Shown here piece after piece: positions 17,515 to 64,000 of a stretch of 64,000 nt of DNA. Position numbers and translations under genes: made by a program. The DNA is from a virus. Below the pieces are notes generated by a model that was not told where the DNA came from, did no database searches, and worked only from the letters and a program-made list of their open reading frames with translations. Location of the stretch: the IMG/VR virus record IMGVR_UViG_3300007511_000004, positions 32,001 through 96,000 of that record. One strand, given 5' to 3'. Position 1 is the first letter of the stretch. The number at the start of each line of letters is the position of its first letter.

Positions 17515-18025
17515 AATTAAACGTCACTACAATTCGGGCTTCGGGAGATTTGGGCTGAGAAGAACTATGGAATTTTAATCCATTGAACCACATTGTTCTA
17601 TTTGCTACAGAATCACATACACTTTCTATAGTATATTCTTTATGTTGTTCCGGTCCATTCTCTTTATATATGTAGGTTGGAGCAGTACTATCCGTTACGT
17701 AATAGAGCTGGGTTGTGTGAGGTTGCATATAGTCTACATGGGGATCATGCACCATACCACCCTCATTACTATTAAATATATATCCGATTCGTATCCGGAT
17801 CAGACGACCGAAATCTAGGTTAATCAGTGGGGATAATAATCCAAACAATCTTTTATCATTGATATTCCCATTCCGATAAACCACAGTAGAGAATCCATTT
17901 TGGTTATCACTGCCCCCTTTCTTTACCACATTCTTATTAAACGTCCATTGGGTTTCGGGAGATAGGATTTCTTCATGAATTAGTTTGTGTGAAAAGGGAG
18001 TTAGGAAATTGTCAATTATTTGCAT
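17495..18025 (-). CDS. 2OG-Fe(II) oxygenase
   Basis: IIDNFL start (ATG 18025), PHVD...FHSS...RIVVTFN. Confidence 0.8.
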   Translation of the reverse strand: MQIIDNFLTPFSHKLIHEEILSPETQWTFNKNVVKKGGSDNQNGFSTVVYRNGNINDKRLFGLLSPLINLDFGRLIRIRIGYIFNSNEGGMVHDPHVDYMQPHTTQLYYVTDSTAPTYIYKENGPEQHKEYTIESVCDSVANRTMWFNGLKFHSSSQPKSPEARIVVTFNYDTRDT

Positions 18026-19004: not shown

Positions 19005-19630
19005 AATGAAATACCTGCATTGATGGTATACCGATTAACGTTATTATTGGTTAACCTCTTTACTGAATGTACCAAGCGGGGGTTTCCATTATTCAATAGA
19101 ATTACTTTCCCGTTAGCTGGATACACAGTGTGCTTAGTTTCGACCTCCCCGTCAGGCCAGGTTCTTTCGCCGAGTTTAAGATACGATTCCCACTCATTAT
19201 CCCATCTACTTTCCTCAGTGAAATAGATTAGGAATCCGATATCGTGATCTTCTACCCCATCCCAATGCCATCCAAGCTCCGCTGATCCGTTCCACACATC
19301 TATGAATTTTAATTTATGATTATAGCCGCAAGTTCTTTTAAACCACCCGGTGTAATGCGGATCACCGAATAATTCATTTATCACCTCTATATAAATTGGA
19401 GGAACAGACTCGACGCTTTTTTGATTGACTTGCCCCTCACGATCTCTGTGATATTTTTTAGCCTTCTCGGGTGCACCATCTGCTGCATTTATACTCCAGT
19501 CTGGCACACCTTTATATTCAATGTGATCTACCCAATTCTCAGATAAAAGCTGACCCCAGACCATAGCATTAAGATGGGTAGGCAGCTCCCATTCATCATA
19601 CCCATCCTTGTAGAATTTATCGACGTTCAT
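18995..19630 (-). CDS. 2OG-Fe(II) oxygenase (paralogue of 16795..17514)
   Basis: WHWD...LVHSV...RY; NNGNPRLVH matches NNNDPSFVH. Confidence 0.8.
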   Translation of the reverse strand: MNVDKFYKDGYDEWELPTHLNAMVWGQLLSENWVDHIEYKGVPDWSINAADGAPEKAKKYHRDREGQVNQKSVESVPPIYIEVINELFGDPHYTGWFKRTCGYNHKLKFIDVWNGSAELGWHWDGVEDHDIGFLIYFTEESRWDNEWESYLKLGERTWPDGEVETKHTVYPANGKVILLNNGNPRLVHSVKRLTNNNVNRYTINAGISLWN

Positions 19631-20091
19631 ATTGCCGTTGTTCCTAGCCGAGTTTTTCCCTCACCTGTAATATATAGCTGAAGGTCTGATACCTTGGCTA
19701 TTCTAATGATACCGTAGAAGGGCGAGGCTGTGTGATAGACGTAAGCGGGGAAGGTTACTGTCATACCAGTAGTCGGTTTAATAATATATGGTTCGAAGTG
19801 TGAGGCCAACTGCGAGGGGTAGCCACGATTAGCATTACCTCGCGGGTCGTGAAGTATTAGTTCCCCGCCCTCCCCTGAGACGTGTTCATAGTAGATGGAT
19901 GTGAAGTGAGCGTGACCGTGATTATGAGTCGCTAGCCAATAGCCAGACTGTGGGCTTGTTTCCCAGTTACGGATAGCGTGATCAAGTTGATCAAGATCCT
20001 CCTGAAAATAGATTTGTAAATATTCTTTGAATCGTGTCCCAGGATCAGGGTTACCGTTCTCTTCAACGTGTATCGGGGTGGACCACATCAT
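19627..20091 (-). CDS. putative 2OG-Fe(II) oxygenase (TIGR02466-like)
   Basis: HNH...GGELILHDPR...FPAYVYH...R. Confidence 0.75.
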   Translation of the reverse strand: MMWSTPIHVEENGNPDPGTRFKEYLQIYFQEDLDQLDHAIRNWETSPQSGYWLATHNHGHAHFTSIYYEHVSGEGGELILHDPRGNANRGYPSQLASHFEPYIIKPTTGMTVTFPAYVYHTASPFYGIIRIAKVSDLQLYITGEGKTRLGTTAI

Positions 20092-21052
20092 AAACCTCAC
20101 TTAAAAAACATGTATCTTGAGTTCTGAAACTTTGGATGTGGTTTGATAAAAAACATCCCATATTACAATACTGGAAGTGTGCACATTCAAGACAGTTGTA
20201 TTGTTTGAACCATTTCTCTTCCATCTCAAATTTGGATGGTTGATAATTCCGTTTTAGATCTTTTACTAGAATTGTACATGGGCCTGATGTTCCATCGGGT
20301 AAAATGGTAACAGTATCCATGCAGGTCATTTGCTTCTTTACCTTGTTTTGCATATCGTTAAAGGGTAGAACCTTTGGATACTTATCCAGCATGTATAGTA
20401 TAAAATCCCGAAGCATAATATCATTAGGTAGGAAGGTATCCATATTAGCTTCGGGCGTATAATAGTCAAAGTAGATACCAAATCGATCATAAAGGTAATC
20501 GAAAAACGGTACATCGTCTCTCATGAATTTCCGGATACTCGGCTTCGTCATAATGACATTCACCGATTTAATATAATCCCTATACCTTCTTACATTCTCC
20601 TGGAATATCGGAAAGGTGGTCTTATTGAATCGGGCAGAAGGGTCGTAACTAGTTAATAAAGTAACCGGATCCGATCCTAACATTATATCGAATCTTTCGG
20701 TGTTTGTAAATACGAAGTTAGTAGTAAAACAAATTTCTAGATTAATACCTTCGCTGAATGCCCAATTATTTAATTCACGTATGACCTTACCGTAATCCTG
20801 AAATACCCTATCAGGTAAAGCGTCAGCGAAGACCTCTCCGCCCATAAAATGTACACTATAGTCCTCTCGGGGTAAACTCTTAATCCGACCCTTGATTATA
20901 TCGATCTTTTCTAGAATGGTATCGATACCGAAAAAACTATTATGGTCCTGACTGCAGAATTTACAATTCAGATCGCAATATTCGAAGAGAGTGACGATGA
21001 TCTCTCCAGTCTTACCCCTTTTACCCGTCCGGCTTATTACATCAATTGACAT
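20063..21052 (-). CDS. radical SAM/SPASM protein (2 of 4)
   Basis: CDLNCKFC, MGGE, C-terminal C...PC...CLECAHFQYCNMGC...C. Confidence 0.9.
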   Translation of the reverse strand: MSIDVISRTGKRGKTGEIIVTLFEYCDLNCKFCSQDHNSFFGIDTILEKIDIIKGRIKSLPREDYSVHFMGGEVFADALPDRVFQDYGKVIRELNNWAFSEGINLEICFTTNFVFTNTERFDIMLGSDPVTLLTSYDPSARFNKTTFPIFQENVRRYRDYIKSVNVIMTKPSIRKFMRDDVPFFDYLYDRFGIYFDYYTPEANMDTFLPNDIMLRDFILYMLDKYPKVLPFNDMQNKVKKQMTCMDTVTILPDGTSGPCTILVKDLKRNYQPSKFEMEEKWFKQYNCLECAHFQYCNMGCFLSNHIQSFRTQDTCFLSEVYDVVHPDTR

Positions 21053-21578
21053 TCTTGAATACCATATTACAAACCAAACTGATCCGGGTATCTTCTCCTA
21101 GGTATGGAGTTACTTCGTGCCAGATGTAATAAGGAGCTGCGATCAATAATCCGGTTTTTGGCTCTATCTCAACATAAGGTTCTCGACAGAATGATTTCCG
21201 ATTAGTGAACCTCGGGTCGTACAGTCTCAGCTTACCGCCTTCCTCTGATTCGTTTGAATAGTAAACGGCAAAGGCATCTATCTGATCATGGGTATGACAG
21301 GATTTGAAGTCCCCACGATCCATCGGATTGATGATATTAAAAGAATCCATATCATAGTCGGGTGGATGGTCATAGTGGAAACATAGTGCATCGAAAGCTG
21401 ATTTAAAGCGCTCGCGGATAGTTCTCATATTATCAGAGACCCACAAATCCACATTATAGTCAGCGGGTTTCGTTGGAAGAGTGGCGATAATAGCCTTGGA
21501 GGTATTTAAGATATCCTTATTAAACTCGTCGCTATCATCATATTGTTTAGTGTATATAAAGGATTCAAATTCTATCAT
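21042..21578 (-). CDS. putative 2OG-Fe(II) oxygenase (TIGR02466-like)
   Basis: HTH...GGKLRLYDPR...WHEV...RISLVCN. Confidence 0.8.
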   Translation of the reverse strand: MIEFESFIYTKQYDDSDEFNKDILNTSKAIIATLPTKPADYNVDLWVSDNMRTIRERFKSAFDALCFHYDHPPDYDMDSFNIINPMDRGDFKSCHTHDQIDAFAVYYSNESEEGGKLRLYDPRFTNRKSFCREPYVEIEPKTGLLIAAPYYIWHEVTPYLGEDTRISLVCNMVFKNVN

Positions 21579-22705
21579 AACCTAAAATTATTCAATTCTC
21601 CACTATTAGCATTTTTCAATTTATAGATGTAGTTTAGGAATAATACATTTACCTTCAATCGATCTTCACATTCGAATGCCGAAGTGGAAAGGGGCTTCAG
21701 TTCTTCCGCCATGATCGAACCAATTCCCGCAGTGTCGATATACCCCAGTGACAGAGAATCGTATACAGCATCCATTATAGTATCAGATAGATTTTCCTCG
21801 AATGGGGTTTGGCTATTCTGGGTAACTGCTTGCATCATTTCAGATCGGATTGTCGAGAATCGGATATTAGGATGACGGTTTACATAATCGACTCTGTGGT
21901 ACTTTCCTTCATCATCGAATAACCAGCGGGTTCTATCATTAGTATCCTTAAGCGCTATTAGATCATCTTCAGCATTCACATCACTGATCCCGAGAACCCC
22001 TTGGACCCAGCTTTTATAGATGTTATAGAATAGGTGAGATTTGAGGAACTGAACCTCCTCGTTACATTTCTTACCCAATAGTTTTAACATCTTCTTTCCG
22101 AGGCTACCATTATGATCAGACCCGCTTGCGAGGTAATTTGCAATTAAGAACTCCACCCCGATATTAGGAATAATCTCCGATCGTAATACCGAATAATCTG
22201 CCCATGATAGATCTAACGTTATGGCATTCCACTTAGTGATAAATTCAGACTTACTTAGATAAGTAATCCCCTTAGCATTATTCTTTTGTTTTTCCAGCCC
22301 ATCGTTTGCGCCCCATAGAAAAGTAGTGGTATTTTCTAACTGGGAATTGAGACTGAATGTATTATAAATCTTCCATGCTATATCAACATGTAAAGTTTCA
22401 AATAGTAGCTTTATGAATTTAATAATTATCTTATCATAATTATCACGATTGACGTGGATATTCACTGTACCTTTATTCTTAAGCGCAGTAAAGAAATCTT
22501 TATCATTATCATATGGGGCGTCATCCCCGGTCCACAGTTCCTCTAGGTCGTCTACATTGTGCATCTGGGCCTTCAGATCCCTCCAGGCAGTCTTCAAATC
22601 TTCGAGGAAGATGGAGTTTAAATTAGGGGTAATAACCATGTTATCGACATTATTGTCCATTAAGTAATCGTACTTAACGTAAACTTTATCAAAGAGCAGA
22701 AACAT
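21575..22705 (-). CDS. hypothetical protein (376 aa)
   Basis: Long ORF overlapping its operon neighbours; no recognisable motif. Confidence 0.65.
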   Translation of the reverse strand: MFLLFDKVYVKYDYLMDNNVDNMVITPNLNSIFLEDLKTAWRDLKAQMHNVDDLEELWTGDDAPYDNDKDFFTALKNKGTVNIHVNRDNYDKIIIKFIKLLFETLHVDIAWKIYNTFSLNSQLENTTTFLWGANDGLEKQKNNAKGITYLSKSEFITKWNAITLDLSWADYSVLRSEIIPNIGVEFLIANYLASGSDHNGSLGKKMLKLLGKKCNEEVQFLKSHLFYNIYKSWVQGVLGISDVNAEDDLIALKDTNDRTRWLFDDEGKYHRVDYVNRHPNIRFSTIRSEMMQAVTQNSQTPFEENLSDTIMDAVYDSLSLGYIDTAGIGSIMAEELKPLSTSAFECEDRLKVNVLFLNYIYKLKNANSGELNNFRL

Positions 22706-23432
22706 ACTCTAATTCCTTTTGCATTTGGTGTTGAAAGTCTTCATGGATAATTTCCCCTGATGAGACCCCATATGTTAACATAGCCATGAAATTATTAGGA
22801 GTAGTCCAATAGTAAAACATATTTTTACCTTTGAACATCGGTTCGTTGAATTGTTTTTCCATATAGTATACTGGGATATCTAATGCGAGGATGGCCTGAG
22901 CCTCCTCCCATTCATACATTTTTACATAATTTACCCCAATGTAATCATAGTCGTCAATTGTCTCAAACTCGTTCTTTGCTGCTTCCCGTATCGCTTCATC
23001 ATTAATGGTAGTTACATTAAAAACTGACCCGGAAGCAATAGCGGTTAGCCACCTATTAATTATTTCAGGATTCTCTGATCGGAATTCCGCCATCTCATCA
23101 TCATTTAGAATATATTCAATATCGTAAATCTCGTCGATCCATTCGAACCCGGCTTCTTGATAGAGCATTTTAAGTACGGTCAATTCGGAATGAACCGAGT
23201 TAATGATCAACCTATGGTTCATATAGACCAGAATATAGTTTTTACGATCAGCTAATGATACCTTATCCCAGCCAACTATATTACAGGGGATATCCAGATT
23301 GCTGACGTAGGTAATCAACTTATCTTCTTTTAATATGCTTTCGCTATAATCAATATTAAAGATGATACTATCATCATTAAAATACTCCTTCAATTCCTCC
23401 ATGGGAATAGGAGCCACAGTATCTTTTATCAT
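22689..23432 (-). CDS. hypothetical protein (247 aa, acidic)
   Basis: ORF immediately downstream of the candidate precursor; no recognisable motif. Confidence 0.65.
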   Translation of the reverse strand: MIKDTVAPIPMEELKEYFNDDSIIFNIDYSESILKEDKLITYVSNLDIPCNIVGWDKVSLADRKNYILVYMNHRLIINSVHSELTVLKMLYQEAGFEWIDEIYDIEYILNDDEMAEFRSENPEIINRWLTAIASGSVFNVTTINDEAIREAAKNEFETIDDYDYIGVNYVKMYEWEEAQAILALDIPVYYMEKQFNEPMFKGKNMFYYWTTPNNFMAMLTYGVSSGEIIHEDFQHQMQKELEYVSAL

Positions 23433-23435
23433 AAT

Positions 23436-24011
23436 TTATCTACGTCCTCTTGAAGTGTGACAGTCGTAATGACAACTATAATGACAGGTATCAATGTCTC
23501 GGGTGAGGGCGGAATCCCTTACATTCCGATATGCGGTTCGTACTGATGACAGATACGATTCCATTTCACTGGAGGATATGGTCCTACCAGAATTCACTGT
23601 ACTGGAATACCCTGGCGCGGATACGGATGATCGAGCATTGTATGTTCCGGATGTGGGCTGATACGCTTTAGCAGTACTATCAATCTGCAACTCACTAGTA
23701 CCATTGTTATCGAAATATCTTCGAGCCCGCATATTCCTCATATGGGTCCAGTCAGTTGCGCCGGTGACCATCCCAGTCCGGACTGTCGAAGCAGTAATAG
23801 TTCCCCCGGAAGAACCTAGATCATTATCTGACATATATCCAGTGCTGCTAGGTAAAGATGCAGTAGAACCCCCGAACCGATCGTTAGGCATTTCGGAAAA
23901 AGGTTTACTGTTAGTCCCCCATGATACTGAGGCTTTCGCGTCGGCCGCAACATAATCCTGCCATCTCTTACGAACGTTACTTCGACTGATATTATTTGTT
24001 AAGGATACCAT
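23436..24011 (-). CDS. Ser/Thr-rich protein with C-terminal CHxxCHxxCH repeat; candidate substrate/precursor of the radical SAM cluster
   Basis: Ends DTCHYSCHYDCHTSRGRR; all three of its Cys residues lie in this tail; sits directly after the first rSAM gene. Confidence 0.65.
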   Translation of the reverse strand: MVSLTNNISRSNVRKRWQDYVAADAKASVSWGTNSKPFSEMPNDRFGGSTASLPSSTGYMSDNDLGSSGGTITASTVRTGMVTGATDWTHMRNMRARRYFDNNGTSELQIDSTAKAYQPTSGTYNARSSVSAPGYSSTVNSGRTISSSEMESYLSSVRTAYRNVRDSALTRDIDTCHYSCHYDCHTSRGRR

Positions 24012-24012
24012 A

Positions 24013-25035
24013 TTAAATCCTGTCGATCTGTTTATTTGTATTTATGTCTTTTAACAACATCATTAGAGTTTTCGGGGAGGGACATGTATCACCTTCCCAT
24101 TCTAATTGATGGCAATCTGATCCACACACGTCGAATACCGGGCATTCGAAACAAGCGGGGTTTCGATTCAATTCCTTCATTATAATACTACATCTGCCGT
24201 TTGATTTTAAAACTTCAGACGCAGGCTGATTTATATGCCCATATGCGTTTTGGGGAGCGGTATTAGGGCATCCAGCAATTGAACCATCAGCATTAATAGT
24301 AATTAACTTTTGTTCACAGTCTCGACACCAGGTACCTTGGCTCGGATTGTTTTTCTCGAACTTGGCGTAAATATTCTCCATGATTACATGATATATGGAA
24401 TCCCGGTCATTCAATTGATTGTGGTATCTAACAAACCAATTATCGATCTCTTTATTCGAAGGCCATAATCCGGAATTAAGCTTGGCGTTGCCATCCATAG
24501 TAATCCGCTCAAAGTCTAATTCATGGATACCGAGACTTGACATGTAGGCAATGATCTGCTTCGGTGGCATATCTAGAACAGATTTACTCATACTAACGAA
24601 GCATTTAACAGTATATCCCATACCCACTAATAATTTGACATTATCCTCCCATAATCTTCGCTGTTTTACATTGGCGAATCTGATAGTAGGATCCCAAGAA
24701 GTACCGATGCGCTTATTGAGAACATCCTCAAAGAATTTGAGCTTCTCTTCGGTGAGTTTATACGTAAGGTTTGATGTGATACCATAATTATCCCCATCGG
24801 TCAATTCAACGAATCTTCGCAACGAGGACACGGGCGCGAGCATTGGCTCACCACCATGAAACTCATACCAAATAGAATCTGCAGTTAATTGATTAACCCA
24901 GGCTGCAGTTGCCTCGGGATCGAAGTAGATCTTCTGACCAGAAATCCCAGAAGTGAAACAATGAGAACAATTGAGATTACAGGTCTCAGTTGTTTTCACA
25001 TAAACGGATAAGCGTTTCGGTGTCGTTAATTGCAT
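24013..25035 (-). CDS. radical SAM/SPASM protein (1 of 4)
   Basis: KTTETCNLNCSHC, FHGGEP, full SPASM CRDC...GCP...CFECPVFDVCGSDC...CP. Confidence 0.92.
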   Translation of the reverse strand: MQLTTPKRLSVYVKTTETCNLNCSHCFTSGISGQKIYFDPEATAAWVNQLTADSIWYEFHGGEPMLAPVSSLRRFVELTDGDNYGITSNLTYKLTEEKLKFFEDVLNKRIGTSWDPTIRFANVKQRRLWEDNVKLLVGMGYTVKCFVSMSKSVLDMPPKQIIAYMSSLGIHELDFERITMDGNAKLNSGLWPSNKEIDNWFVRYHNQLNDRDSIYHVIMENIYAKFEKNNPSQGTWCRDCEQKLITINADGSIAGCPNTAPQNAYGHINQPASEVLKSNGRCSIIMKELNRNPACFECPVFDVCGSDCHQLEWEGDTCPSPKTLMMLLKDINTNKQIDRI

Positions 25036-25456
25036 ATGAAACCATTAATGCCTTTTTATCGTTGATTGCCCGATGCCGGACGTTTGCCGGGATTAGTAGG
25101 GTCTCTCCAGGATGAATCGTATACACCTTACCCTCGACCTCCATCACTTTCTCTCCATCATGACATTCTATGTGAACATCATGTGGATCTGTATGCTCTT
25201 TGAATGTAGTACCATGTGCCGGATTGTAGAAGAAATGCATAGTTCTATCGTTTAGTTGATACAATCTTTCCATCTGCTCAACCTTAATAGTGCATTGACC
25301 CTCTGCTATAATAACCCCCAGTCGGGCTAAATATCCACAAAAGTCCAGATCACTATTAAGATAATGTTGAAGGCCGTCTCTATCTATATACGACACATCA
25401 TGATTTAGGTAGCACTCGGGAGAGTCTACGAAATTAAAAAAGTCTTTGAAAAACAT
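24986..25456 (-). CDS. cupin/JmjC-like oxygenase
   Basis: HTD...PGETLLIPANVRHRA cupin motif. Confidence 0.7.
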   Translation of the reverse strand: MFFKDFFNFVDSPECYLNHDVSYIDRDGLQHYLNSDLDFCGYLARLGVIIAEGQCTIKVEQMERLYQLNDRTMHFFYNPAHGTTFKEHTDPHDVHIECHDGEKVMEVEGKVYTIHPGETLLIPANVRHRAINDKKALMVSYAINDTETLIRLCENN

Positions 25457-50740: not shown

Positions 50741-51406
50741 ATGGACGACTTTAAAACCTTTATCCAAGAGGGGGTTAATGACCCCGCTATCTTTAAAGCA
50801 GTATTTTTGGCGGGTGGACCGGGATCAGGAAAAAGTTTCATTGTTGGTAGAACCGCCCTCAGCGCGCTGGGATTTAAAGTAATTAACTCTGATGATATAT
50901 TTGAAATTGCTCTTAAAAAGGCTAATATGAAGCCCGATCCTGAAACGATCTTCTCTCCGAAGGGCCAAGAGATTCGATCTAAAGCAAAAGCGCTTACTGG
51001 TAAAAAATTAGAATTAGCCCTTGACGGGAGATTGGGATTGGTCATTGACGGGACTGGTAAGAACTATGATAAGATCAGTAAACAGGCTACCGAACTGAGA
51101 AAACTCGGCTATGAAGTCAGTATGATCTTCGTCAATACGACAGAGGAGACCGCAGTCGCTCGCAACCACGAGAGGCCTCGAAGCTTACCGGATGACACCG
51201 TTAAAAGAATGTGGAAAGATGTCCAGAAGAATCTAGGTAAATTCCAAAGCTTCTTTCGTAATAAAATGTACGTAGTCGACAATTCCGAAGACGTAAACTG
51301 GCAGTCCGCCACACTTAAAGCTTATAAAGAAATCTCTAAATGGGCTAAGACGAAACCTGCATCTAAAGCAGCTAAAACCTGGATCGCTCACCAAAAGAAG
51401 AGCTGA
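50741..51406 (+). CDS. P-loop kinase (zeta-toxin/AAA_33-like)
   Basis: FLAGGPGSGKS, INSDD, LVIDGT, RN..RPR. Confidence 0.75.
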   Translation: MDDFKTFIQEGVNDPAIFKAVFLAGGPGSGKSFIVGRTALSALGFKVINSDDIFEIALKKANMKPDPETIFSPKGQEIRSKAKALTGKKLELALDGRLGLVIDGTGKNYDKISKQATELRKLGYEVSMIFVNTTEETAVARNHERPRSLPDDTVKRMWKDVQKNLGKFQSFFRNKMYVVDNSEDVNWQSATLKAYKEISKWAKTKPASKAAKTWIAHQKKS

Positions 51407-52834: not shown

Positions 52835-55294
52835 GTGAGCTTTTACACATCAGTCGATGTCTATAATAATCGTGTTGTTTATCGAGGTTATACCGATAAC
52901 GGAACCCCGGTAAGCTACAAATATAAATTTGAACCGACCCTTTTCCTACCATCGACGGAAGAGACCGGGTGGCAATCTCTCGATGGGTATAATGTAAAAC
53001 CTCGACAGTTTACTTCACCGAGCGATATGCGAAATTGGATAAAAGCCAATGGGGATACTGATGGCTTTAAATATTATGGTTCTGACCGGCCGGTTATGCA
53101 GTTTATCCAGGATAAATTTCCAGGAGAGATCAAGTACAAAAAAGAACAGATCAATGTAGTCAATTTTGATATCGAGGTTTACTCAGAAGATGGCTTCCCG
53201 CATGCTGAAGAGGCATTGCATCCCATCACTGCTATCACTGCTAAATCCTCCCGTTCTAGCGTATACCACGTATGGGGTCTAAAAGATTATTCGGTAGAGG
53301 AATCCAAACACAAACAACTTATAATCCAGTATCACAAATGCGAGACCGAGGAGGAATTACTCTATAAATTCCTATCGTGGTGGAAAAAGGATTATCCAGA
53401 TATTGTTACTGGGTGGAATATTCGATTCTTTGATATTCCCTACGTCATTAATCGCATTGCCCGGATCGGATCCGAAAAGGCCGCTGAATCTCTTTCTCCA
53501 TGGGGGGTGGTTCGTCAGAAACAAGTCCAATTTAAAAATCAGAATATGGATTCTTATATGATCGTCGGGGTTAACCAGATGGATTATTATGACCTATTCA
53601 AGAAGTTTGGTTACAGTTACGGTCCTCAAGAATCCTATCGTTTGGATCATATTGCACACGTAGTATTAGGTGAACGCAAATTATCATATGAGGAATATGG
53701 TAACCTTCGCAACCTTTATAATGGAAATCATCAGCTTTATATAGACTATAACATCAAAGATGTGGAGCTTATTGAGCGGATGGATGAGAAGATGGATCTG
53801 ATCGGGCTTGCGTGCACTTTGGCGTATAAAGCTGGCGTGAATTTCACTGATGTCTTTGGTACAACCTCTATCTGGGATTCTATTGTATATAGAGAATTGA
53901 CCCCAAGGCATATCGCAGTACCTGCAATGAAAGCCCGGCACCGCATTGCCAACCAATCCGTGGGATTTGCAGGCGGGTATGTCAAAGATGTTAAACCTGA
54001 TATGTATGAGTGGGTGGTATCATTTGACCTAGCATCTCTGTATCCTAATATCATTGCTCAATGGAATATGTCACCCGAGACCCTTATAGATCATCCTCGA
54101 TCTGGTGATAATGTATCTCGTGCCGCAAACGGATCAAGTTATCTTAATGATTTCGAAGGGGCCTTTCCTCGGATCGTTAAGGCTTACTATGATGAACGCA
54201 AAGTCGTTAAGGAGGAAATGCTTGTTGCAATGAAACGCCAACAAGCAGAAGGTACGACTAAAGAACTTGAACGTGAGATTTCTACCGCCCAGAATAAACA
54301 GATGGCGATTAAGATTCTTATGAACTCGCTTTTCGGAGCAATTGGAAATAAATGGTATCGTTATTTCGATCTTAGGATTGCCGAAGGTATTACTTTAACT
54401 GGGCAGCATGTTATTAAATGGTGCGAACGCACGGTCAACGATGAGATCAATAAGATCTTGGGTACTAATGAAGATTATGTAATAGCAATTGATACCGACT
54501 CAGTCTATGTTAATTTCAAACCATTTATTGAAAAGTTCAAACCCGCTGATCCGGTGAAGTTCTTGGACGAAGTATGCCAAGATCATTTCAATAAGTTATT
54601 TGAACGATCAATGGAAGCCCTTTTCGAAGATAGTAATTGCTTCGAGAATCGAATGGATATGGACCGAGAGGTTATTGCCGATCGAGGGATTTGGCAGGCG
54701 AAGAAACGTTATATCCTGAACGTACACAATTCAGAGGGGGTTCAATATGAAAAGCCTAAGCTTAAGATTATGGGCATCGAAGCTATTAAATCCTCTACCC
54801 CCGAGCATGCCCGGAACTGGATGAAGGAGCTATTCCCGATCCTTATGACGGGTACCGAGAAGGAGACCCAGGATTATATCCGGGCTTGCAAAGAAAAATT
54901 CAAATCCCTTCGACCTGAAGAAGTGGCAGCGCCACGTGGTGTAAGCGATATTAATAAGTGGCAAAGCCGCGCAGAGATCTATGCAAAAGGTTGTCCTATT
55001 CACGTACGTGGTTCTTTACTTTATAATCATATGATATCTGATAAGGGTCTATCGGGGAAATACGACTACATCAAAAACGGGGAGAAGATTAAATATACAT
55101 ATCTTCGTAAGCCAAATCCTCTTAAGGAAAATGTAATAGCTTTCCCTGATTATCTTCCACCGGAGTTGGGCCTAGAGAGATACGTCGATTACGATCTACA
55201 ATTCGACAAGGCGTTTCTTGATCCGGTAAAAGCGATCCTTGATGCGATCGGTTGGAGAGCCGAAGAAACCGCAACCCTTGAAGCATTTTTCTAG
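52835..55294 (+). CDS. gp43: family B DNA polymerase gp43
   Basis: DIEV exo I, TGWN..FFD, SFDLASLYP, KILMNSLFG, DTDS. Confidence 0.97.
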   Translation: MSFYTSVDVYNNRVVYRGYTDNGTPVSYKYKFEPTLFLPSTEETGWQSLDGYNVKPRQFTSPSDMRNWIKANGDTDGFKYYGSDRPVMQFIQDKFPGEIKYKKEQINVVNFDIEVYSEDGFPHAEEALHPITAITAKSSRSSVYHVWGLKDYSVEESKHKQLIIQYHKCETEEELLYKFLSWWKKDYPDIVTGWNIRFFDIPYVINRIARIGSEKAAESLSPWGVVRQKQVQFKNQNMDSYMIVGVNQMDYYDLFKKFGYSYGPQESYRLDHIAHVVLGERKLSYEEYGNLRNLYNGNHQLYIDYNIKDVELIERMDEKMDLIGLACTLAYKAGVNFTDVFGTTSIWDSIVYRELTPRHIAVPAMKARHRIANQSVGFAGGYVKDVKPDMYEWVVSFDLASLYPNIIAQWNMSPETLIDHPRSGDNVSRAANGSSYLNDFEGAFPRIVKAYYDERKVVKEEMLVAMKRQQAEGTTKELEREISTAQNKQMAIKILMNSLFGAIGNKWYRYFDLRIAEGITLTGQHVIKWCERTVNDEINKILGTNEDYVIAIDTDSVYVNFKPFIEKFKPADPVKFLDEVCQDHFNKLFERSMEALFEDSNCFENRMDMDREVIADRGIWQAKKRYILNVHNSEGVQYEKPKLKIMGIEAIKSSTPEHARNWMKELFPILMTGTEKETQDYIRACKEKFKSLRPEEVAAPRGVSDINKWQSRAEIYAKGCPIHVRGSLLYNHMISDKGLSGKYDYIKNGEKIKYTYLRKPNPLKENVIAFPDYLPPELGLERYVDYDLQFDKAFLDPVKAILDAIGWRAEETATLEAFF

Positions 55295-55331: not shown

Positions 55332-55365
55332 ATGAACATTCACAATGGGAAGAACGGAGAATTAT

Positions 55366-55776
55366 ATGTCTGATTGGGCAAATGATATTTATATGATGCA
55401 CAATAAATTTGGGGTGCGAGAATGGTTTGAGAAAAATAAAGACAATGAAGAATTGATGCGAGAATACCTTCAATTTCGAATGTCTATGATTATGGAAGAA
55501 TTTGTTGAAACCCTGGATGCTATTGAGGCTAAAGACCCCGAAGAAATTGTTGACGGTCTGATTGATCTATGTGTCTTTGCAATTGGTACCCTGGACGTAA
55601 TGGGCGTGGATGCGAATATGGCATGGGATCAGATCCATGAAGCCAATATGTCTAAATCGCCGGGCGTGAAGCCTGGCCGTCCGAACCCGTTTGGCATGCC
55701 GGATCTTCTTAAGCCTGAGGGTTGGGTAGGACCAAGTCATGAGGGAAATCATGGCGATCTCGCTCTCGTCGTTTAA
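55366..55776 (+). CDS. MazG-like/all-alpha NTP pyrophosphohydrolase
   Basis: EEFVE...EEIVDGLIDL...IHEANMSK...KPEGW. Confidence 0.8.
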   Translation: MSDWANDIYMMHNKFGVREWFEKNKDNEELMREYLQFRMSMIMEEFVETLDAIEAKDPEEIVDGLIDLCVFAIGTLDVMGVDANMAWDQIHEANMSKSPGVKPGRPNPFGMPDLLKPEGWVGPSHEGNHGDLALVV

Positions 55777-58013: not shown

Positions 58014-58230
58014 AAGAAAGAGGCCTGGACTGATAACTCGTCTTTTCACAGACCTGTATACCGTAACACTCTACATAGAAGAGGACGGTGTGACAACCCA
58101 GACAATTTATAGACTGAAAGAGCTTAAAAAGATTAACTCCCATTATCTAAAGGGCGTGCTTGAAGATGGAACCGAAATCGAGTTTCGAATGGAGAAATCC
58201 TTTGATTATAAGGTGGTGAAACATTACTAA
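58003..58230 (+). CDS. hypothetical protein
   Basis: ORF coupled to kdsA (TAATG). Confidence 0.5.
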   Translation: MKNRRKRPGLITRLFTDLYTVTLYIEEDGVTTQTIYRLKELKKINSHYLKGVLEDGTEIEFRMEKSFDYKVVKHY

Positions 58231-59015
58231 TGCGGATTATTGCAGGACCGTGTCAACACGAGAGTTTAAGTCAAAGTCTAGATATTGCAAAAGAATGTAA
58301 ATGGGTATGTGATCAGTATGGCTTTGAATACATCTTCAAGGCCAGCTATGATAAAGCTAATCGTACACACGTTAACGGCAAACGAGGATTAGGGCTATAT
58401 CAGACTCTCTATGACTTCAAAGATATGAAAGACGAGATCCCTGACCTAAAGATCCTTACTGATGTTCATACAAGTGCTGATGTATATGCAATAGCGGATA
58501 ATATGGAACTGGCGGATGTTGTTGATATTGTACAAATCCCCGCATTCCTATGTCGCCAAACTGATTTAATCCAAGCCGCCGCAAACCGGTTTAAGATCGT
58601 TAATATTAAGAAAGGCCAGTTCCTTGCACCTTGGGATGTACAAGGCATCCTAAGTAAGACTGAAGCCTATGACATTGAAACCTGGATCACAGAAAGGGGT
58701 ACCAGCTTTGGATACAACACTCTCGTTAATGACTTTGCAGGCATGCAATATCTTCATAATTTGTTGGGCGATAACTTCGTTTACGATGTTACTCATTCAG
58801 TCCAGTCACCAGGAGGTAAAGGAGATTCTTCTGGCGGCAACCGTGATTTCGTTGCCGGTCTTAGCCGTGCAGCTGCTGCTATGGGCATTTCTTCTTTCTT
58901 TATAGAAGTTCATCCAGATCCGGACAACGCTCCAAGCGATGGGCCCAATATGATTCAACTAGATAAATTTCAACAGGTGATTGATGACATCGACCGCTAT
59001 TCTTATCCCCGCTAG
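58230..59015 (+). CDS. kdsA: KDO-8-phosphate synthase
   Basis: IAGPC, KASYDKANRT, QIPAFLCRQTDL, KKGQFLAP, ERG.SFGY, DVTHSVQ.PG, EVHPDP..A.SDG. Confidence 0.95.
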   Translation: MRIIAGPCQHESLSQSLDIAKECKWVCDQYGFEYIFKASYDKANRTHVNGKRGLGLYQTLYDFKDMKDEIPDLKILTDVHTSADVYAIADNMELADVVDIVQIPAFLCRQTDLIQAAANRFKIVNIKKGQFLAPWDVQGILSKTEAYDIETWITERGTSFGYNTLVNDFAGMQYLHNLLGDNFVYDVTHSVQSPGGKGDSSGGNRDFVAGLSRAAAAMGISSFFIEVHPDPDNAPSDGPNMIQLDKFQQVIDDIDRYSYPR

Positions 59016-59673
59016 GATCGGGTCTAAAAGGTTTCCGGGTAAACCTTTAATCCACCTTGATGGTGTACCTATGATTCGAAGGATCTACGATATTTGTAGC
59101 TCTACGGGTCTGCGCACGTATGTTCTTACGGACTCTGAAGAGATCTGTAAGGTTATCCCAAATGGCGATGCACTGATGACCGACGGTTATAGCGATCTTC
59201 CCCCTCGGAATGGTACTGAGCGCTGCTCAATCGCAGCGGCCCATATAAAAGATCTTGCCGAGCACGATTATTTTATCAACGTTCAGGGAGATATGCCAGA
59301 CATAACCCCCGAAATGATCCATAAGGTACGTGCTTTATTGGATCACTATACTGTATCAACGTTATATACGGATCTGCCTGAAAATATGAAGGAGGATCCA
59401 AATACGGTTAAAATGATAACCAACGGCGACATCGCACATTGGTTCGGTCGAGGGTTTAAATACGGGCATCACCACTTGGGAATCTATGGGTACCGTAAAA
59501 CCGCCCTAAAAAGTTACTATCATCGTGCTCCATCTGAATATGAAATTATCGAGGAATTGGAACAGCTAAGATGGTTCGAGGGGGGTTTACGGATAGGCGT
59601 AGATATGGTACAATTCAATGGTATCGAAATTAATACACCAGAAGACGCGGAAAGGTGGAACGCTAATGACTGA
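58984..59673 (+). CDS. kdsB: CMP-KDO synthetase (3-deoxy-manno-octulosonate cytidylyltransferase)
   Basis: IPAR.GSKRFPGKPL, NGTER, INVQGD.P, HLGIYGY, E.LEQLR, INTPED. Confidence 0.92.
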   Translation: MTSTAILIPARIGSKRFPGKPLIHLDGVPMIRRIYDICSSTGLRTYVLTDSEEICKVIPNGDALMTDGYSDLPPRNGTERCSIAAAHIKDLAEHDYFINVQGDMPDITPEMIHKVRALLDHYTVSTLYTDLPENMKEDPNTVKMITNGDIAHWFGRGFKYGHHHLGIYGYRKTALKSYYHRAPSEYEIIEELEQLRWFEGGLRIGVDMVQFNGIEINTPEDAERWNAND

Positions 59674-59710
59674 TAAAGCACTTTGGATGAATAACTGAGG
59701 GGGATCTTAA

Positions 59711-60058
59711 ATGAAAGCTGGAAAAGTATGGGGTATGACTGAACTCATTGAAGCCAATGGGGCTTTAGAGTTTCACCGTATTGAAATGGATAAGGGCGGG
59801 GTTTGTTCAAAACACCTCCATGAGTTTAAGTGGAATGGATTCTACGTCGAGTCTGGTAAGATGCTTATTCGAGTATGGCAAAAAGATTATGATCTTGTAG
59901 ATGAAACTATTCTATATCCTGGTGATTATACTAAGGTAAAGCCTGGGGTATACCACCAATTCGAATGTCTTGAATCCGGGGTAGCTTATGAGCTGTACTG
60001 GGCGGAGTTTTCTCATTCAGATATCAAACGGGAGACGGTTGGGTTTCAACAACACTAG
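59711..60058 (+). CDS. cupin (sugar isomerase/epimerase-like)
   Basis: K.WG, S.H.H..K...FYVESG, PGVYHQF. Confidence 0.7.
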   Translation: MKAGKVWGMTELIEANGALEFHRIEMDKGGVCSKHLHEFKWNGFYVESGKMLIRVWQKDYDLVDETILYPGDYTKVKPGVYHQFECLESGVAYELYWAEFSHSDIKRETVGFQQH

Positions 60059-60066
60059 GATCAAAT

Positions 60067-60624
60067 ATGAAAGAGCTAGAACCCGTTGGTATAACCTGTA
60101 GCACCTTTGATCTATTACATGCCGGTCACATACTAATGTTGAGAGAAGCAAAAAATGTCTGCAATTATCTAATTTGTGGTTTACAAGTAGATCCAAGTTA
60201 TGATAGAATATATAAGAACCCACCGGTACAGACGTTAGTAGAACGCTACTCTCAACTGGCTGCAGTGAGGTATGTTGATGAAATTATTCCATACCAAACC
60301 GAGAAGGATTTAATGGATATATTGCAAATGTATCCTATTGATGTACGCATTATCGGCGACGAATATAAGACCCGAGATTTTACTGGTAAAGAAGAATGTC
60401 GTCGTCTAGGCATTGACATTTATTATAATAAAAGGGATCATAGATTTTCATCTTCTGATCTAAGACAAAGGGTACATGAGAATGAACAGAGTAAGCGGGA
60501 GAAATCTCTCCGAGGGGCTCAAAGCGCTAAGGACTTTATTATACAGACAGGGATACGAGATTCAGACGGGGAGCTGGCAGGGTACGACCTCTCCGCCTAC
60601 GTTCCTGGAGATTCTTCACGCTGA
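60067..60624 (+). CDS. cytidylyltransferase (TagD/glycerol-3-phosphate cytidylyltransferase-like)
   Basis: FDLLHAGH (HxGH), YLICGL, ER..QL, R.H.FSSS. Confidence 0.85.
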   Translation: MKELEPVGITCSTFDLLHAGHILMLREAKNVCNYLICGLQVDPSYDRIYKNPPVQTLVERYSQLAAVRYVDEIIPYQTEKDLMDILQMYPIDVRIIGDEYKTRDFTGKEECRRLGIDIYYNKRDHRFSSSDLRQRVHENEQSKREKSLRGAQSAKDFIIQTGIRDSDGELAGYDLSAYVPGDSSR

Positions 60625-61264
60625 CCTCGTTGCTCCTATGTATAGTAATGCGAAGAGAGCGTCAGATGAATTAGAAGCAAGTCAACCCTGGGCTGATGTA
60701 CACTTTCGAGAACGGGTCGGCGGCGAACCTCTGAATCCTCCCCCATCACATACTATGTGGCTTAAAGACACTGAGAAATATATGTCGGGTGCTAATGATA
60801 CCGCATTCTCTCACTCCTACCCTGAACGTATGTGGGCACCGAGCGTCGATGGTATCCGCTTTAAAACTGGTAACCTGGGCGATGCAGTAGAGCTACTTAA
60901 AAAAGATAGCACTACCCGCCAGTGCTACGTTCCCATGTGGTTTCCCGAGGATATTGTAGCAGCCAATGCGGGAGAACGAGTACCGTGCTCATTTGGATGG
61001 CACTTTCTGGAACGTGGCGGTCAACTACACTGTTCATATCATATGCGATCTTGTGATGTAGTCCGACACTTACATAATGATCTATACTTCGCCAATCGTC
61101 TTACTATGTGGATGATTGAGCAAAGCGGTATGGATGTTAAGCCTGGGTATCTTCACTTCTCCTCGACCTCGCTCCATTGCTTTGCAAATGATCGTTTCGC
61201 ATTGAGGCGTCTTTCGGGTGTGACCGAATATAACTGGGATAATTTTGAAGGAGCAGCCGTTTAA
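60482..61264 (+). CDS. thymidylate-synthase-fold enzyme, dCMP hydroxymethylase-like
   Basis: VPC catalytic Cys; RSCDVVRHLHND places Asp at the specificity position as in T4 gp42 (RSNDVVFGFRND); SLH. Confidence 0.7.
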   Translation: MNRVSGRNLSEGLKALRTLLYRQGYEIQTGSWQGTTSPPTFLEILHADLVAPMYSNAKRASDELEASQPWADVHFRERVGGEPLNPPPSHTMWLKDTEKYMSGANDTAFSHSYPERMWAPSVDGIRFKTGNLGDAVELLKKDSTTRQCYVPMWFPEDIVAANAGERVPCSFGWHFLERGGQLHCSYHMRSCDVVRHLHNDLYFANRLTMWMIEQSGMDVKPGYLHFSSTSLHCFANDRFALRRLSGVTEYNWDNFEGAAV

Positions 61265-62559
61265 TGTGTGGACTTATTGCAGCAATTGGTTCCGAAATCG
61301 ATGTAGAGGCGTTACTTGAGACCATCGCCCATCGCGGTTTACCCGGATATAAAGGATATGAACGAAATCGGGACGTTCAGCTAGGCCATTATAGTCTACC
61401 CTTCGTCAATCTCGACCCTAACGTTGCCATTCAACCTCGAATGAATAGTAATTCGCTATTTGTTGGAGAAATCTTTAATTATGAAGAATTGGGGTTTGAG
61501 GATGATATTGAGGCAGCTTGGCAAACCTTTTGGATAAAGGGCATCCGAGAGTTTAATAGATTTGATGGCTTCTGGACATATGTCACAGTTATGGATGGGG
61601 CACTGTTCGGGGTAACCGATCATCTTAGCATTAAACCCCTTTATTATCGTACCGATGTAGATGCCATGGCTTCCGAGCCTGAAGTACTACGGGCATTCGG
61701 TCCAGTTACTCGTAATGAATTATTCCATGCCAATACTATGAAGTGGGGATACGATCCAACCGGTGGCACCCCGTGGAATGAGATTCAACAGGTTCCACCC
61801 GGATGTTTTGTATATAAGGGGCAAGTACACAAGTACTGGGATTGGAGGACTATCTCGCACACTAACTTGCGGGCTGATCTAATCGAATCAGTCGAACGAC
61901 GACTTGGCGGCCAACGCGATCTTTCAATCCTACTATCTGGCGGACTTGATTCAACTATCATCTATAAAATAATTACTGAAATCCTCAATCGTGATGTTAC
62001 TGCGATCCATGTGGATAATCAAGAAGAAGACTACGCCCGATTGGTTTCAAATGAGATGATCGAAGTTCGACTTGATGGTATCAGTGATGCAGACAGCGTA
62101 TCGGTTCACCAATCACCCGTGGATCTGGGGAGTACTAAGCCCCAGATCGCCATGGCCCGGAAGTTGAAAGAATTAGCCTTTCATGCAGTATTGACCGGCG
62201 ATGGTGCAGATGAACTTTTCGGGGGTTATCGACGCGCTAAAGAGTATGATAGTCAAGCTTCCGACATTTGGTGCGAGCTACCGTACTATCACCTACCTAA
62301 ATTAGATCGTACAATGATGAAGAGTACTATTGAACTTCGCGCACCATTCCTATCTCCTAAGGTAATCGTCCATGCTCTTAATACCCCCTATGAACAACGT
62401 AATGGTGAAAAGAAAGTACTAAAGGAAGCGTTCAAAGATCTTGTGCCACAGGAAATCTTAGATCGAGATAAACACCCTCTTAAGACCGATCAAATTCGTA
62501 CTGATCCAATGAAACAACGAATTATTAATGAAAAAATCTGGAGAGAATTTAATGGATAA
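61264..62559 (+). CDS. asparagine-synthase-like amidotransferase (Ntn GATase + PP-loop ATP pyrophosphatase)
   Basis: N-terminal MCG, HRG, GEIFNY, LSGGLDS, LTGDGADELFGGY, ELRAPFL. Confidence 0.9.
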   Translation: MCGLIAAIGSEIDVEALLETIAHRGLPGYKGYERNRDVQLGHYSLPFVNLDPNVAIQPRMNSNSLFVGEIFNYEELGFEDDIEAAWQTFWIKGIREFNRFDGFWTYVTVMDGALFGVTDHLSIKPLYYRTDVDAMASEPEVLRAFGPVTRNELFHANTMKWGYDPTGGTPWNEIQQVPPGCFVYKGQVHKYWDWRTISHTNLRADLIESVERRLGGQRDLSILLSGGLDSTIIYKIITEILNRDVTAIHVDNQEEDYARLVSNEMIEVRLDGISDADSVSVHQSPVDLGSTKPQIAMARKLKELAFHAVLTGDGADELFGGYRRAKEYDSQASDIWCELPYYHLPKLDRTMMKSTIELRAPFLSPKVIVHALNTPYEQRNGEKKVLKEAFKDLVPQEILDRDKHPLKTDQIRTDPMKQRIINEKIWREFNG

Positions 62560-62989
62560 GTGGGATACTCGTTATTTGAAATTGGCGAAGGAAGTCTCTA
62601 CCTGGTCTAAAGATCCTTCGACCCAGATTGGAGCAGTAGCCGTCGGGAATAAGGGCGAAATATTATCGACCGGATATAACGGCTTCCCTCGCCACATTGC
62701 CGATCTTGATGAAAGATATGAAGATAGAGATATCAAATATAAATACATCGTCCATGCAGAGGCTAATTGCATATATAATGCTACATATAATGGGGTATCT
62801 CTAAGAGACAGCACCATGTACGTCTACGGTCTCCCCTGCTGTTCCGAATGTGGAAAGGCCATTATCCAAGTCGGGGTTAAACGAGTGGTCATGCACGGGG
62901 ATCCTAATAATGATAGGTGGCGGGAATCTACGGAACGCACGCTAGGAATGTTTAAAGAAGCACTGATTGAATGGGAGTTTGATAATTGA
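62552..62989 (+). CDS. cd: dCMP deaminase
   Basis: SKDPSTQIGA, GYNGFPR, HAEAN, PCCSEC. Confidence 0.92.
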   Translation: MDKWDTRYLKLAKEVSTWSKDPSTQIGAVAVGNKGEILSTGYNGFPRHIADLDERYEDRDIKYKYIVHAEANCIYNATYNGVSLRDSTMYVYGLPCCSECGKAIIQVGVKRVVMHGDPNNDRWRESTERTLGMFKEALIEWEFDN

Positions 62990-63828
62990 AACGGATTATT
63001 ATTGTCGGTCACGGCTTTGTTGGGAAGGCAGTAGATTACGGGTTTACGAATCCACAGGTAGAGAAGATCATAATTGATCCGAAATATGGTACAGATCTTT
63101 CCGACCTAAGCAATCTTATTGAAACAGACGCAATATTTGTCTGCTTACCTACCCCCATGGATAAGGATGGATCGATCGATAGCGAAATCCTTGAATCGAC
63201 ATTGACCCGTCTTAAGGGTCGGATCACTGGTCTTGATAGACCTAAGGTAATTGTTAAATCAACCGTGACTCCCGACGTGCTCAAGCGGGTCTACTTCCGA
63301 GGCTTAGTTTATAATCCGGAATTCCTGACGGAGCGATCTGCAAATGAACAATTCATCAATCCTACTATGCACATTTTAGGTGGCAGACGCGAAGATACTG
63401 AAGTGGTAGAGAAGCTAATTAATGAATATTCTCTTTGTAGCCCCGCACCCGTTTACCATATGTCTATGTCAGAGGCGTCATTTGTTAAATATGGCATCAA
63501 CGCCTTCCTTGCACTTAAGGTCCTTTTCTTCAATCAGTTGTATGATGTCGTGAATGACGATGATGATAGTAATTTCGCACGCGTCATAAAAGCCATAGGT
63601 TCTGATCCGCGGATCGGCCACAGTCACACAAAGGTGCCGGGTTTTGATGGTAAACAAGGATTCGGTGGTGCATGTTTTCCCAAGGACATTTCTGCATTAA
63701 ATACCTTCTCAGAGAGGTTTACAATCCTCGAAGAATGTGTTACAATAAACAATAACTATCGTAAGAACTATGTATTAGACGATAGAGAGAAATCACAAAA
63801 TATTTCATACAGGGAAACCAATAAATGA
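62986..63828 (+). CDS. UDP-glucose/GDP-mannose 6-dehydrogenase family protein
   Basis: GHGFVG, CLPTP, KSTVTP, NPEFL, KY..N.FLA.KV, GFGGACFPKD. Confidence 0.9.
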   Translation: MKRIIIVGHGFVGKAVDYGFTNPQVEKIIIDPKYGTDLSDLSNLIETDAIFVCLPTPMDKDGSIDSEILESTLTRLKGRITGLDRPKVIVKSTVTPDVLKRVYFRGLVYNPEFLTERSANEQFINPTMHILGGRREDTEVVEKLINEYSLCSPAPVYHMSMSEASFVKYGINAFLALKVLFFNQLYDVVNDDDDSNFARVIKAIGSDPRIGHSHTKVPGFDGKQGFGGACFPKDISALNTFSERFTILEECVTINNNYRKNYVLDDREKSQNISYRETNK

Positions 63829-64000
63829 GTATTATGCAAAAGTTAAAGAAGAATAGTAGAGTTAAGTCCACCTCTATTCTATCCGAATCCAAATTCTTTA
63901 ATGAAAAGGACATGATTACAACTGATGTTCCGATGATCAACGTCGCGTTATCAGGTGCAGTTGATGGTGGCCTATCATCAGGTCTTACGGTCCTTGCTGG
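63825..64000 (+). CDS. uvsX: RecA-like recombinase UvsX (3'-truncated at window end)
   Basis: MSIMQKLKKNS...TDVPMINVALSG.VDGGL.SGLTVLA; not in ORF track because it runs off the end. Confidence 0.88.
   Translation, partial: MSIMQKLKKNSRVKSTSILSESKFFNEKDMITTDVPMINVALSGAVDGGLSSGLTVLA

Follow-up and report, generated by a model that had tools for sequence, protein, structure and literature searches.

A thymidylate synthase homologue and an AsnB-like amidotransferase in a widespread phage cassette that probably makes an undescribed nitrogen-bearing cytosine

What might a thymidylate synthase homologue and an asparagine-synthetase-like protein make together in a phage? The stretch analysed here (the window: 64,000 nucleotides, bases 32001-96000 of the 146,556-bp IMG/VR phage record IMGVR_UViG_3300007511_000004, which has direct terminal repeats) encodes in immediate succession a thymidylate synthase (TS)-like enzyme, an AsnB-like amidotransferase, a deoxycytidine monophosphate (dCMP) deaminase and a short NDP-sugar-dehydrogenase-like (UGDH-like) protein. 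A first-pass annotation had listed these four genes, and we find them on the strand and at the positions that it gave; being long and having strong family matches, they are not chance open reading frames (ORFs). We consider it probable that the first three belong to a pre-replicative cytosine-replacement cassette of the T4 gene 42 kind, extended by a new tailoring enzyme, which probably makes an undescribed nitrogen-bearing cytosine for the phage DNA. This reading builds on gene content, active-site residues, synteny and co-occurrence, from which we infer the chemical steps and the product. The cassette itself is real, widespread and specific to viruses, and it extends the route by which TS homologues are known to modify cytosine.

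The TS-like enzyme has the active site expected for a cytosine nucleotide. Its gene starts at an ATG at 60476; the start formerly placed at 60482 is the second in-frame ATG, and the gene otherwise stands as annotated. The motif RSCDVVRHLHND occupies residues 191-202, and its final Asp (D202) falls in HMMER alignments on N229 of L. casei TS and N177 of E. coli TS (ThyA), and on D179 of T4 gp42, just as the first-pass annotation had it. Among TS homologues, Asp at position 177 is diagnostic of a dCMP substrate (PMC13326640; PMC8670742). Alignments to the two bacterial enzymes further show that an RSCD motif (Asp194) retains D169 of ThyA, and the catalytic Cys (C171, in a VPC motif) aligns with PPC198 of L. 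casei TS, that is, C146 of ThyA. Across 40–115 relatives, the catalytic Cys, Asp177 and Asp169 are invariant or nearly so (the Cys is invariant in 40 sequences). Two further positions characterise the family: residue 147, a His in ThyA, is Ser or Thr, and residue 143, Leu in ThyA and Asp in T4 (SDFMC), is an invariant Arg (ERVPC). According to the published diagnostics, position 147 varies between modified and unmodified contigs, and an acidic residue at 143 goes with hydroxymethylation (PMC13326640; PMC8670742). Because the Xp12 5-methyl-dCMP synthase has Asn at 143, we dropped this position as a discriminator between methylation and hydroxymethylation.

Could the protein simply be a second thymidylate synthase? 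Pfam and PHROG label it as one (PF00303, 31 bits, above the cut-off), and a survey of pelagimyophages annotated its 'group C' with two thymidylate synthases, a group that may correspond to the lineage of the window. We nevertheless regard this as a most improbable explanation, given the invariant Asp in place of N177, the replacement of His147, a C-terminal tail that is not conserved and a true ThyX encoded elsewhere in the genome. Moreover, a maximum-likelihood tree places the RVPC/Asp177 clade apart from ThyA, as well as from T4 gp42 and Xp12 TS (97/96 support). With a genuine ThyX, and with no dihydrofolate reductase (DHFR) found in the genome, the TS-like enzyme is not needed for thymidylate; the missing DHFR also lends weak support to a non-reductive reaction. 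Among PDB entries, L. casei TS with the N229D mutation ranks second by sequence match. The AlphaFold model (predicted local distance difference test, pLDDT, 89) has MilA, AfhB (a phage dCMP hydroxylase) and TS as matches with E values of ~1e-12, MilA and AfhB fitting slightly better than thymidylate synthases (template-modelling (TM) score of 0.81 for AfhB, normalised to the target). Together, Asp177, the separate ThyX and the genomic slot described below support the assignment to the cytosine-nucleotide type, and with it the dCMP substrate suggested before.

The partner enzyme is as distinctive. As had been noted, the two genes are coupled by a TAATG (61262-61266), in which the stop codon of the TS-like gene overlaps the start of the AsnB-like gene, and the latter encodes an N-terminal nucleophile (Ntn) amidotransferase with a PP-loop domain: it begins MCGL, carries an SGGLDS PP-loop and has a GDGADELFGGY loop, the GDGADE of which corresponds to SGEGSDE in AsnB, beta-lactam synthetase, carbapenam synthetase and TsnB9. 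Its AlphaFold model (pLDDT 96) has the two-domain Ntn and PP-loop fold of these enzymes and superposes on all of them and on human ASNS (TM 0.79 to the AsnB structure 1ct9). Is it then a compact asparagine synthetase, standing as an unrelated auxiliary gene beside an ordinary 5-hydroxymethylcytosine or 5-methylcytosine pathway made up of the TS-like enzyme, the MazG-like pyrophosphatase and the deaminase? The superposition on E. coli AsnB and human ASNS would fit, as would the retained equivalents of Cys1, Arg30 and Gly75-Glu76 and the PP-loop; marine prasinoviruses, too, reportedly encode an asparagine synthase. However, the protein is ~120 residues shorter than AsnB and lies under every NCBIfam asparagine-synthase cut-off (165.9 bits against 267.1 for TIGR01536; 111.8 against 499 for NF006949). 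Mutagenesis of AsnB has shown T322, T323 and R325 to be needed for formation of the beta-aspartyl-AMP intermediate; in the HMMER alignment to 1ct9, their equivalents are V, D and G (PVDLGS), replacements that are conserved in the subfamily. Cellular relatives are distant: the nearest in 185,579 species genomes are 27–34% identical, and longer. Taken together, these traits set the protein apart from ordinary asparagine synthetases. Its subfamily appears to be specific to viruses, with most members on viral contigs. It is large and diverse, with 188 representatives (after clustering at 50%) at E <1e-30, most of which begin MCG, and the search with the AsnB-like protein returned several thousand protein clusters, the top 120 of which all have at least 57% identity and include Tara Oceans sequences.

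What ties the AsnB-like enzyme to the TS-like one is their joint distribution. In the 50 related IMG/VR loci, wherever a contig reaches far enough, the two genes are adjacent (48 of 48) and the deaminase follows directly (47 of 47), in the same order throughout; as all of these phages are kin of the window phage, adjacency there is by itself weak evidence. More telling is a distant search, in which an alignment of distant AsnB-like proteins served as query and returned 80 loci. Twenty-two of these are not T4-like and show at least four gene orders, with a TS-like gene 1–5 kb from the AsnB-like gene; RVPC, RSCD and Asp177 are present in all 18 of their TS-like proteins that were aligned. Here, a thymidylate-kinase-like gene (phrog_761) precedes the AsnB-like gene and a MazG/dUTPase_2-like pyrophosphatase follows it, with dCMP deaminase, dUTPase and DNA methylases nearby. 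The remaining 58 loci, mostly from jumbo phages, have no TS-like gene in the neighbourhood. Yet each of six near-complete jumbo genomes with an AsnB-like gene encodes a TS-like protein of the same clade, 41–44% identical to that of the window (298 bits to the hidden Markov model of the clade for the one scored), ~100 kb from the AsnB-like gene where positions could be compared. PF00303 hardly detects this clade (18.9 bits in a genome carrying a member), and we therefore disregarded its lack of a match in three incomplete jumbo contigs. The co-occurrence across phages that had been put forward as a check thus holds over unrelated lineages, whether the genes are adjacent or unlinked. It supports a functional tie between the two enzymes and places the AsnB-like one in a pre-replicative pathway that replaces deoxycytidine. 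It also renders the compact asparagine synthetase unlikely: in all lineages examined, the gene keeps company with the RVPC/Asp177 TS clade, even unlinked, and sits among nucleotide enzymes.

Several observations on these distant genomes deserve mention. Pfam and PHROG recognised almost nothing among the genes that neighbour the AsnB-like gene in jumbo phages. One jumbo TS-like copy (G004:C1:396523-398403) is a 637-residue ORF with two matching segments split by an insertion; inteins (Hint and LAGLIDADG domains) occur in some TS-like homologues (P0393, P0394), and a search for fusions with the TS-like domain returned intein-bearing versions only. Jumbo phages with an AsnB-like gene (L135 and L136, the genomes G003 and G004) also carry a canonical ThyA, in frames of 407–434 residues with large insertions relative to bacterial ThyA. 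Lastly, loci L055-L061, L092 and L110 have the AsnB-like and TS-like genes separated by a gene for a C5-cytosine DNA methylase-like protein (~400 residues) or for an N6/N4 methylase, which suggests an extra modification step at the DNA level.

The jumbo loci bear on another alternative. GMP synthetase, ThiI and TilS are PP-loop enzymes that adenylate ring carbonyls, and the AsnB-like enzyme might do likewise, adenylating O4 of dUMP or of a 5-substituted dUMP and adding ammonia, to regenerate or enlarge the pool of (modified) deoxycytidine nucleotides, for instance against dCTP-deaminase defences. Its gene does lie between a thymidylate-kinase-like gene and a nucleoside triphosphate (NTP) pyrophosphatase and near a deaminase running the opposite reaction, and the jumbo phages have a kinase-AsnB pair without an adjacent TS-like gene (61 of the 80 distant loci have a Walker-A kinase-like gene immediately upstream of the AsnB-like one). 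We nevertheless find ring amination quite unlikely: the deaminase encoded next door would reverse it in a futile cycle, it does not account for the strict requirement, at the level of whole genomes, for an Asp177 TS-like enzyme, and we know of no AsnB-family member that aminates a ring carbonyl.

How does the window cassette compare with what is known? In T4, deoxycytidine gives way to 5-hydroxymethylcytosine through the gp56 dCTPase, the gp42 dCMP hydroxymethylase, the gp1 deoxynucleoside monophosphate (dNMP) kinase and the Cd deaminase, followed by alpha- and beta-glucosyltransferases. The window phage is T4-like, encoding a family-B polymerase, sliding clamp, clamp loader, RegA, a gp61-type primase and UvsX; its kinship to cultured phages is only distant, as the polymerase is at most 49% identical to that of cultured phages (Kyanoviridae) and has phage C48C1 and Kyanoviridae as nearest relatives. 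Since the T4 order is 43 - imm - 42 - beta-gt - segA - uvsX, with gene 42 between 43 and uvsX, the TS-like gene occupies the slot of the dCMP hydroxymethylase and its tailoring enzyme (Table 1). As in T4, the TS-fold enzyme with Asp at the N177 position has an NTP pyrophosphatase and a dCMP deaminase for companions, and a tailoring gene directly beside it. Unlike in T4, the TS homologue belongs to a clade of its own with Arg at 143, the pyrophosphatase is of the MazG type, no gp1-type kinase was recognised, and the neighbouring tailoring gene encodes an ATP- and glutamine-dependent amidotransferase and not a glycosyltransferase. The MazG/PRA-PH gene is found in most related loci and is a candidate dCTPase supplying dCMP. 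The deaminase scores 74.5 bits against PF00383 (cut-off 25), has the HAE and CxxC zinc motifs (HAEANC, PCCSEC), overlaps the 3′ end of the AsnB-like gene with its 5′ end and directly follows that gene throughout the related loci.

A second precedent comes from uncultured phages. MetaGPA uncovered a 5-carbamoyloxymethyl-cytosine pathway consisting of a TS with Asp177, a carbamoyltransferase, PRA-PH and a dCMP deaminase (PMC8670742), and a TS(Asp177) gene at most 3 kb from a PF00383 deaminase, together with PRA-PH, is an experimental signature of modified-cytosine phage contigs (PMC8670742; bioRxiv 2024.12.05.627091). The window has this arrangement, as its deaminase gene starts 1.3 kb after the TS-like gene and a PRA-PH gene lies upstream, and both systems add one nitrogen-adding tailoring enzyme to it. 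That enzyme, however, is here an AsnB-family protein (PP-loop plus Ntn glutaminase) and not a NodU/TobZ-type carbamoyltransferase, and hence chemistry and product must differ. The cassette also resembles the 5-hydroxy-dCMP synthases of RB69, DLP3 and HY126 (AfhB) with their arabinosylation clusters; these are phage TS-fold enzymes that act on dCMP, and their genes adjoin that of the polymerase and have sugar-nucleotide genes around them (PMC13326640). Asn at 169 marks these flavin-dependent hydroxylases (PMC13326640), whereas the D169N change is absent here and Asp169 is invariant.

Table 1. Features in and near the island between the polymerase and uvsX genes, and the X family of cultured phages. 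Positions refer to the window, except in the last row, where they are given as locus:start-end.
Feature	Position	Strand	Matches and remarks
P-loop kinase (Zeta-toxin/AAA_33 type)	50741..51406	+	Walker A GGPGSGKS; Pfam and PHROG matches
Family-B DNA polymerase (T4 gp43 type)	52835..55294	+	Pfam DNA_pol_B_exo1, DNA_pol_B; left island boundary
MazG/PRA-PH-type nucleotide pyrophosphohydrolase	55345..55776	+	Pfam PF01503; phrog_671; ExxE...ExxD motifs
Sugar-nucleotide genes (KdsA, KdsB-like, cupin, cytidylyltransferase-like)	58230..60624	+	Outside conserved core
TS-like gene	60476..61264	+	Positional counterpart of T4 gene 42
AsnB-like gene	61264..62559	+	Ntn glutamine amidotransferase / PP-loop ATP pyrophosphatase
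dCMP-deaminase-family zinc deaminase	62528 (or ATG 62552)..62989	+	Pfam PF00383; phrog_174
Short NDP-sugar-dehydrogenase-like (UGDH-like) gene	62986..63828	+	Variable accessory
uvsX (start)	63825..64000	+	phrog_97 UvsX-like; right island boundary
X family of cultured phages	L140:2530-3423, L142:2907-3968, L141:3208-4041, L224:2677-3486, L225:2593-3432, L226:2693-3442

The sugar-nucleotide genes invite a further explanation, one raised in the first-pass annotation: the UDP-sugar dehydrogenase would make a uronic acid with which 5-hydroxymethylcytosine is glycosylated, and the AsnB-like enzyme would amidate the uronate. AsnB-family amidotransferases of polysaccharide clusters do amidate uronates, and an XrtA/PEP-CTERM-system amidotransferase is among the weaker NCBIfam matches of the AsnB-like protein. 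Sugar-nucleotide genes, moreover, flank the TS-like gene here as they flank the TS homologue in RB69 and DLP3, where they serve DNA glycosylation (PMC13326640). The role proposed for the dehydrogenase is not supported, however. The UGDH-like protein has 280 residues with GxGxxG and GGACFPKD motifs, but its ORF ends 24 residues past the central domain, lacks the PF03720 C-terminal UDP-binding domain and scores below the NCBIfam cut-offs; about half of the related loci, and all 80 distant ones, lack the gene. Likewise, the 50 related loci have KdsA/KdsB in 4–5 cases, the cupin in ~27 and the cytidylyltransferase-like gene in ~33, and none of these four genes occurs in the 80 distant loci; no DNA glycosyltransferase was recognised in the island. 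Uronate amidation is therefore very unlikely, and the sugar-nucleotide genes are not partners of the AsnB-like enzyme; in some members they may decorate the DNA. The CMP-Kdo pathway comprises KdsD, KdsA, KdsC and KdsB; here, KdsA scores above its NCBIfam equivalog cut-off and the KdsB-like protein just below its subfamily cut-off, and the KdsB-like and cytidylyltransferase-like assignments are plausible. The cytidylyltransferase-like ORF (60067-60624) reaches 149 nt into the TS-like gene, with its Pfam domain ending near 60472, and its last 50 codons may be read-through.

How, then, would the favoured cytosine-replacement cassette work? Since the genes that accompany the AsnB-like gene encode mononucleotide enzymes, the AsnB-like enzyme most likely acts on a deoxynucleotide delivered by the TS-like enzyme and not on a sugar. 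The MazG-like pyrophosphatase would first convert dCTP to dCMP. The TS-fold enzyme, with its Cys as nucleophile, Asp177 reading cytosine and Asp169 binding folate, would then add the one-carbon unit of methylene-tetrahydrofolate at C5 of dCMP; because Asp169 is invariant, we take the enzyme still to use this cofactor and its product to bear a C5-CH2-X group, most likely as 5-hydroxymethyl-dCMP or as an enzyme-bound exocyclic-methylene intermediate. The intact PP-loop and Ntn Cys point to ATP-dependent activation followed by ammonia transfer, and the AsnB-like enzyme would accordingly use ATP and glutamine-derived ammonia to form a nitrogen-bearing nucleotide, whether 5-aminomethyl-dCMP, with the hydroxyl adenylated and displaced, or a carboxamide, if a carboxylate were installed first. 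A nucleotide kinase and the host NDP kinase would raise the product to the triphosphate for incorporation by the phage polymerase, and the deaminase might supply dUMP to ThyX or deaminate part of the modified pool. Among these options we would prefer adenylation of the 5-hydroxymethyl oxygen and its displacement by ammonia to give 5-aminomethyl-dCMP, a specific route that, taken singly, is somewhat unlikely; thymidine hypermodification offers a parallel in its phosphorylate-then-aminate logic (PMC8989533). The alternative more typical of the family would be carboxylate amidation, which requires a carboxylate-installing step, and none was found in the conserved core. That the TS-like enzyme itself carboxylates its substrate we rate as improbable, given the invariance of Asp169, which binds folate.

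The same TS clade is also present in cultured phages, namely Muddy (gp49-gp44), Zuko (gp73-gp78), Yersinia P744, Serratia Tlacuache, Brevundimonas Strzyga and Clostridium CPAS-15, at 31–41% identity and within a module ordered kinase - dUTPase/MazG - X - TS-like - (deaminase) - PolA. In place of an AsnB-like partner, the TS-like gene there has X directly upstream of it, a member of the uncharacterised phrog_13667 / phrog_34294 family (Muddy gp47, Zuko gp75, P744 ORF027 and others; Table 1). Its invariant Cys, Arg and Asp align with TS catalytic motifs, and X may thus represent a second, highly divergent subunit of the TS fold; neither the window genome nor the 80 distant AsnB-containing loci yielded a member of the family. 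In the TS tree, AsnB-linked and X-linked members are interleaved (the more distant rows labelled T4L carry the AsnB-linked label by assumption), which implies that the partner gene has been exchanged more than once.

Several points weigh against a cassette for a nitrogen-bearing cytosine. Residue 143 is Arg and not the Asp or Glu of T4-type hydroxymethylases, a rule itself weak in view of the Asn in Xp12. In the AsnB-like enzyme, Asn74, the oxyanion residue of the AsnB glutaminase, is Val across the whole subfamily, and Arg49 is Ser in the window protein. To our knowledge, all characterised AsnB-family enzymes adenylate a carboxylate, and the folate-dependent reaction of the TS fold makes none. 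The TS clade works without the AsnB-like gene in cultured phages, and that gene is in no cultured phage of the collection we searched; inside the T4-like lineage, moreover, adjacency could reflect inherited synteny alone. The island, finally, lacks a clear dNMP kinase. The P-loop kinase left of the polymerase is only a candidate for the nucleotide kinase needed by the pathway: it is not homologous to the thymidylate-kinase-like genes seen in the distant loci, and a search of the genome for a homologue of those genes found none.

Beyond the genes discussed so far, a primase gene and four small plus-strand ORFs with no assigned function also sit between the polymerase and uvsX genes. In the region 95825-97615 of the genome, the uvsX ORF spans only 303 residues, and a second, separate ORF of 276 residues comes after it. 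Far from the island, a 12-kb minus-strand block (window positions 13152-25456) encodes a tryptophan-halogenase-like flavoprotein (14658-15923), four radical-SAM-like proteins, five 2OG-Fe(II) oxygenases and a cupin; it adjoins a gene for a collagen-repeat protein (11736-13172), and its target could be a structural protein or a small molecule.

The literature searched (the 2013 survey of the Aravind group was not covered) holds no paper in which an AsnB-family enzyme is connected with the modification of DNA bases, nor relevant work on aminomethyl- or carboxamido-cytosine, and the combination described here was not found in it, consistent with the earlier view of an undescribed pathway. In its widest form, our proposal is plausible but tentative: abundant uncultured marine T4-like phages, several small-phage lineages and jumbo phages of 230–430 kb may replace cytosine with an undescribed base bearing nitrogen on a C5 one-carbon unit, a 5-aminomethyl- or carboxamide-type cytosine made at the mononucleotide level by the RVPC TS clade and the first AsnB-family amidotransferase to act on nucleotides. 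Whether a given restriction, CRISPR or type IV system can cut a phage depends on its modified bases, which have also been a source of tools for epigenome sequencing. The cassette is common, and its carriers include genomes of ~145 kb as well as jumbo genomes. Should its product prove to be a new base, much phage DNA in the ocean would be chemically non-canonical, with effects on sequencing bias and host-range ecology, and the chemistry of the AsnB family would extend to nucleotides. It would also draw attention to Muddy and other therapeutic phages that have this TS clade, the partner gene in Muddy being likewise uncharacterised.

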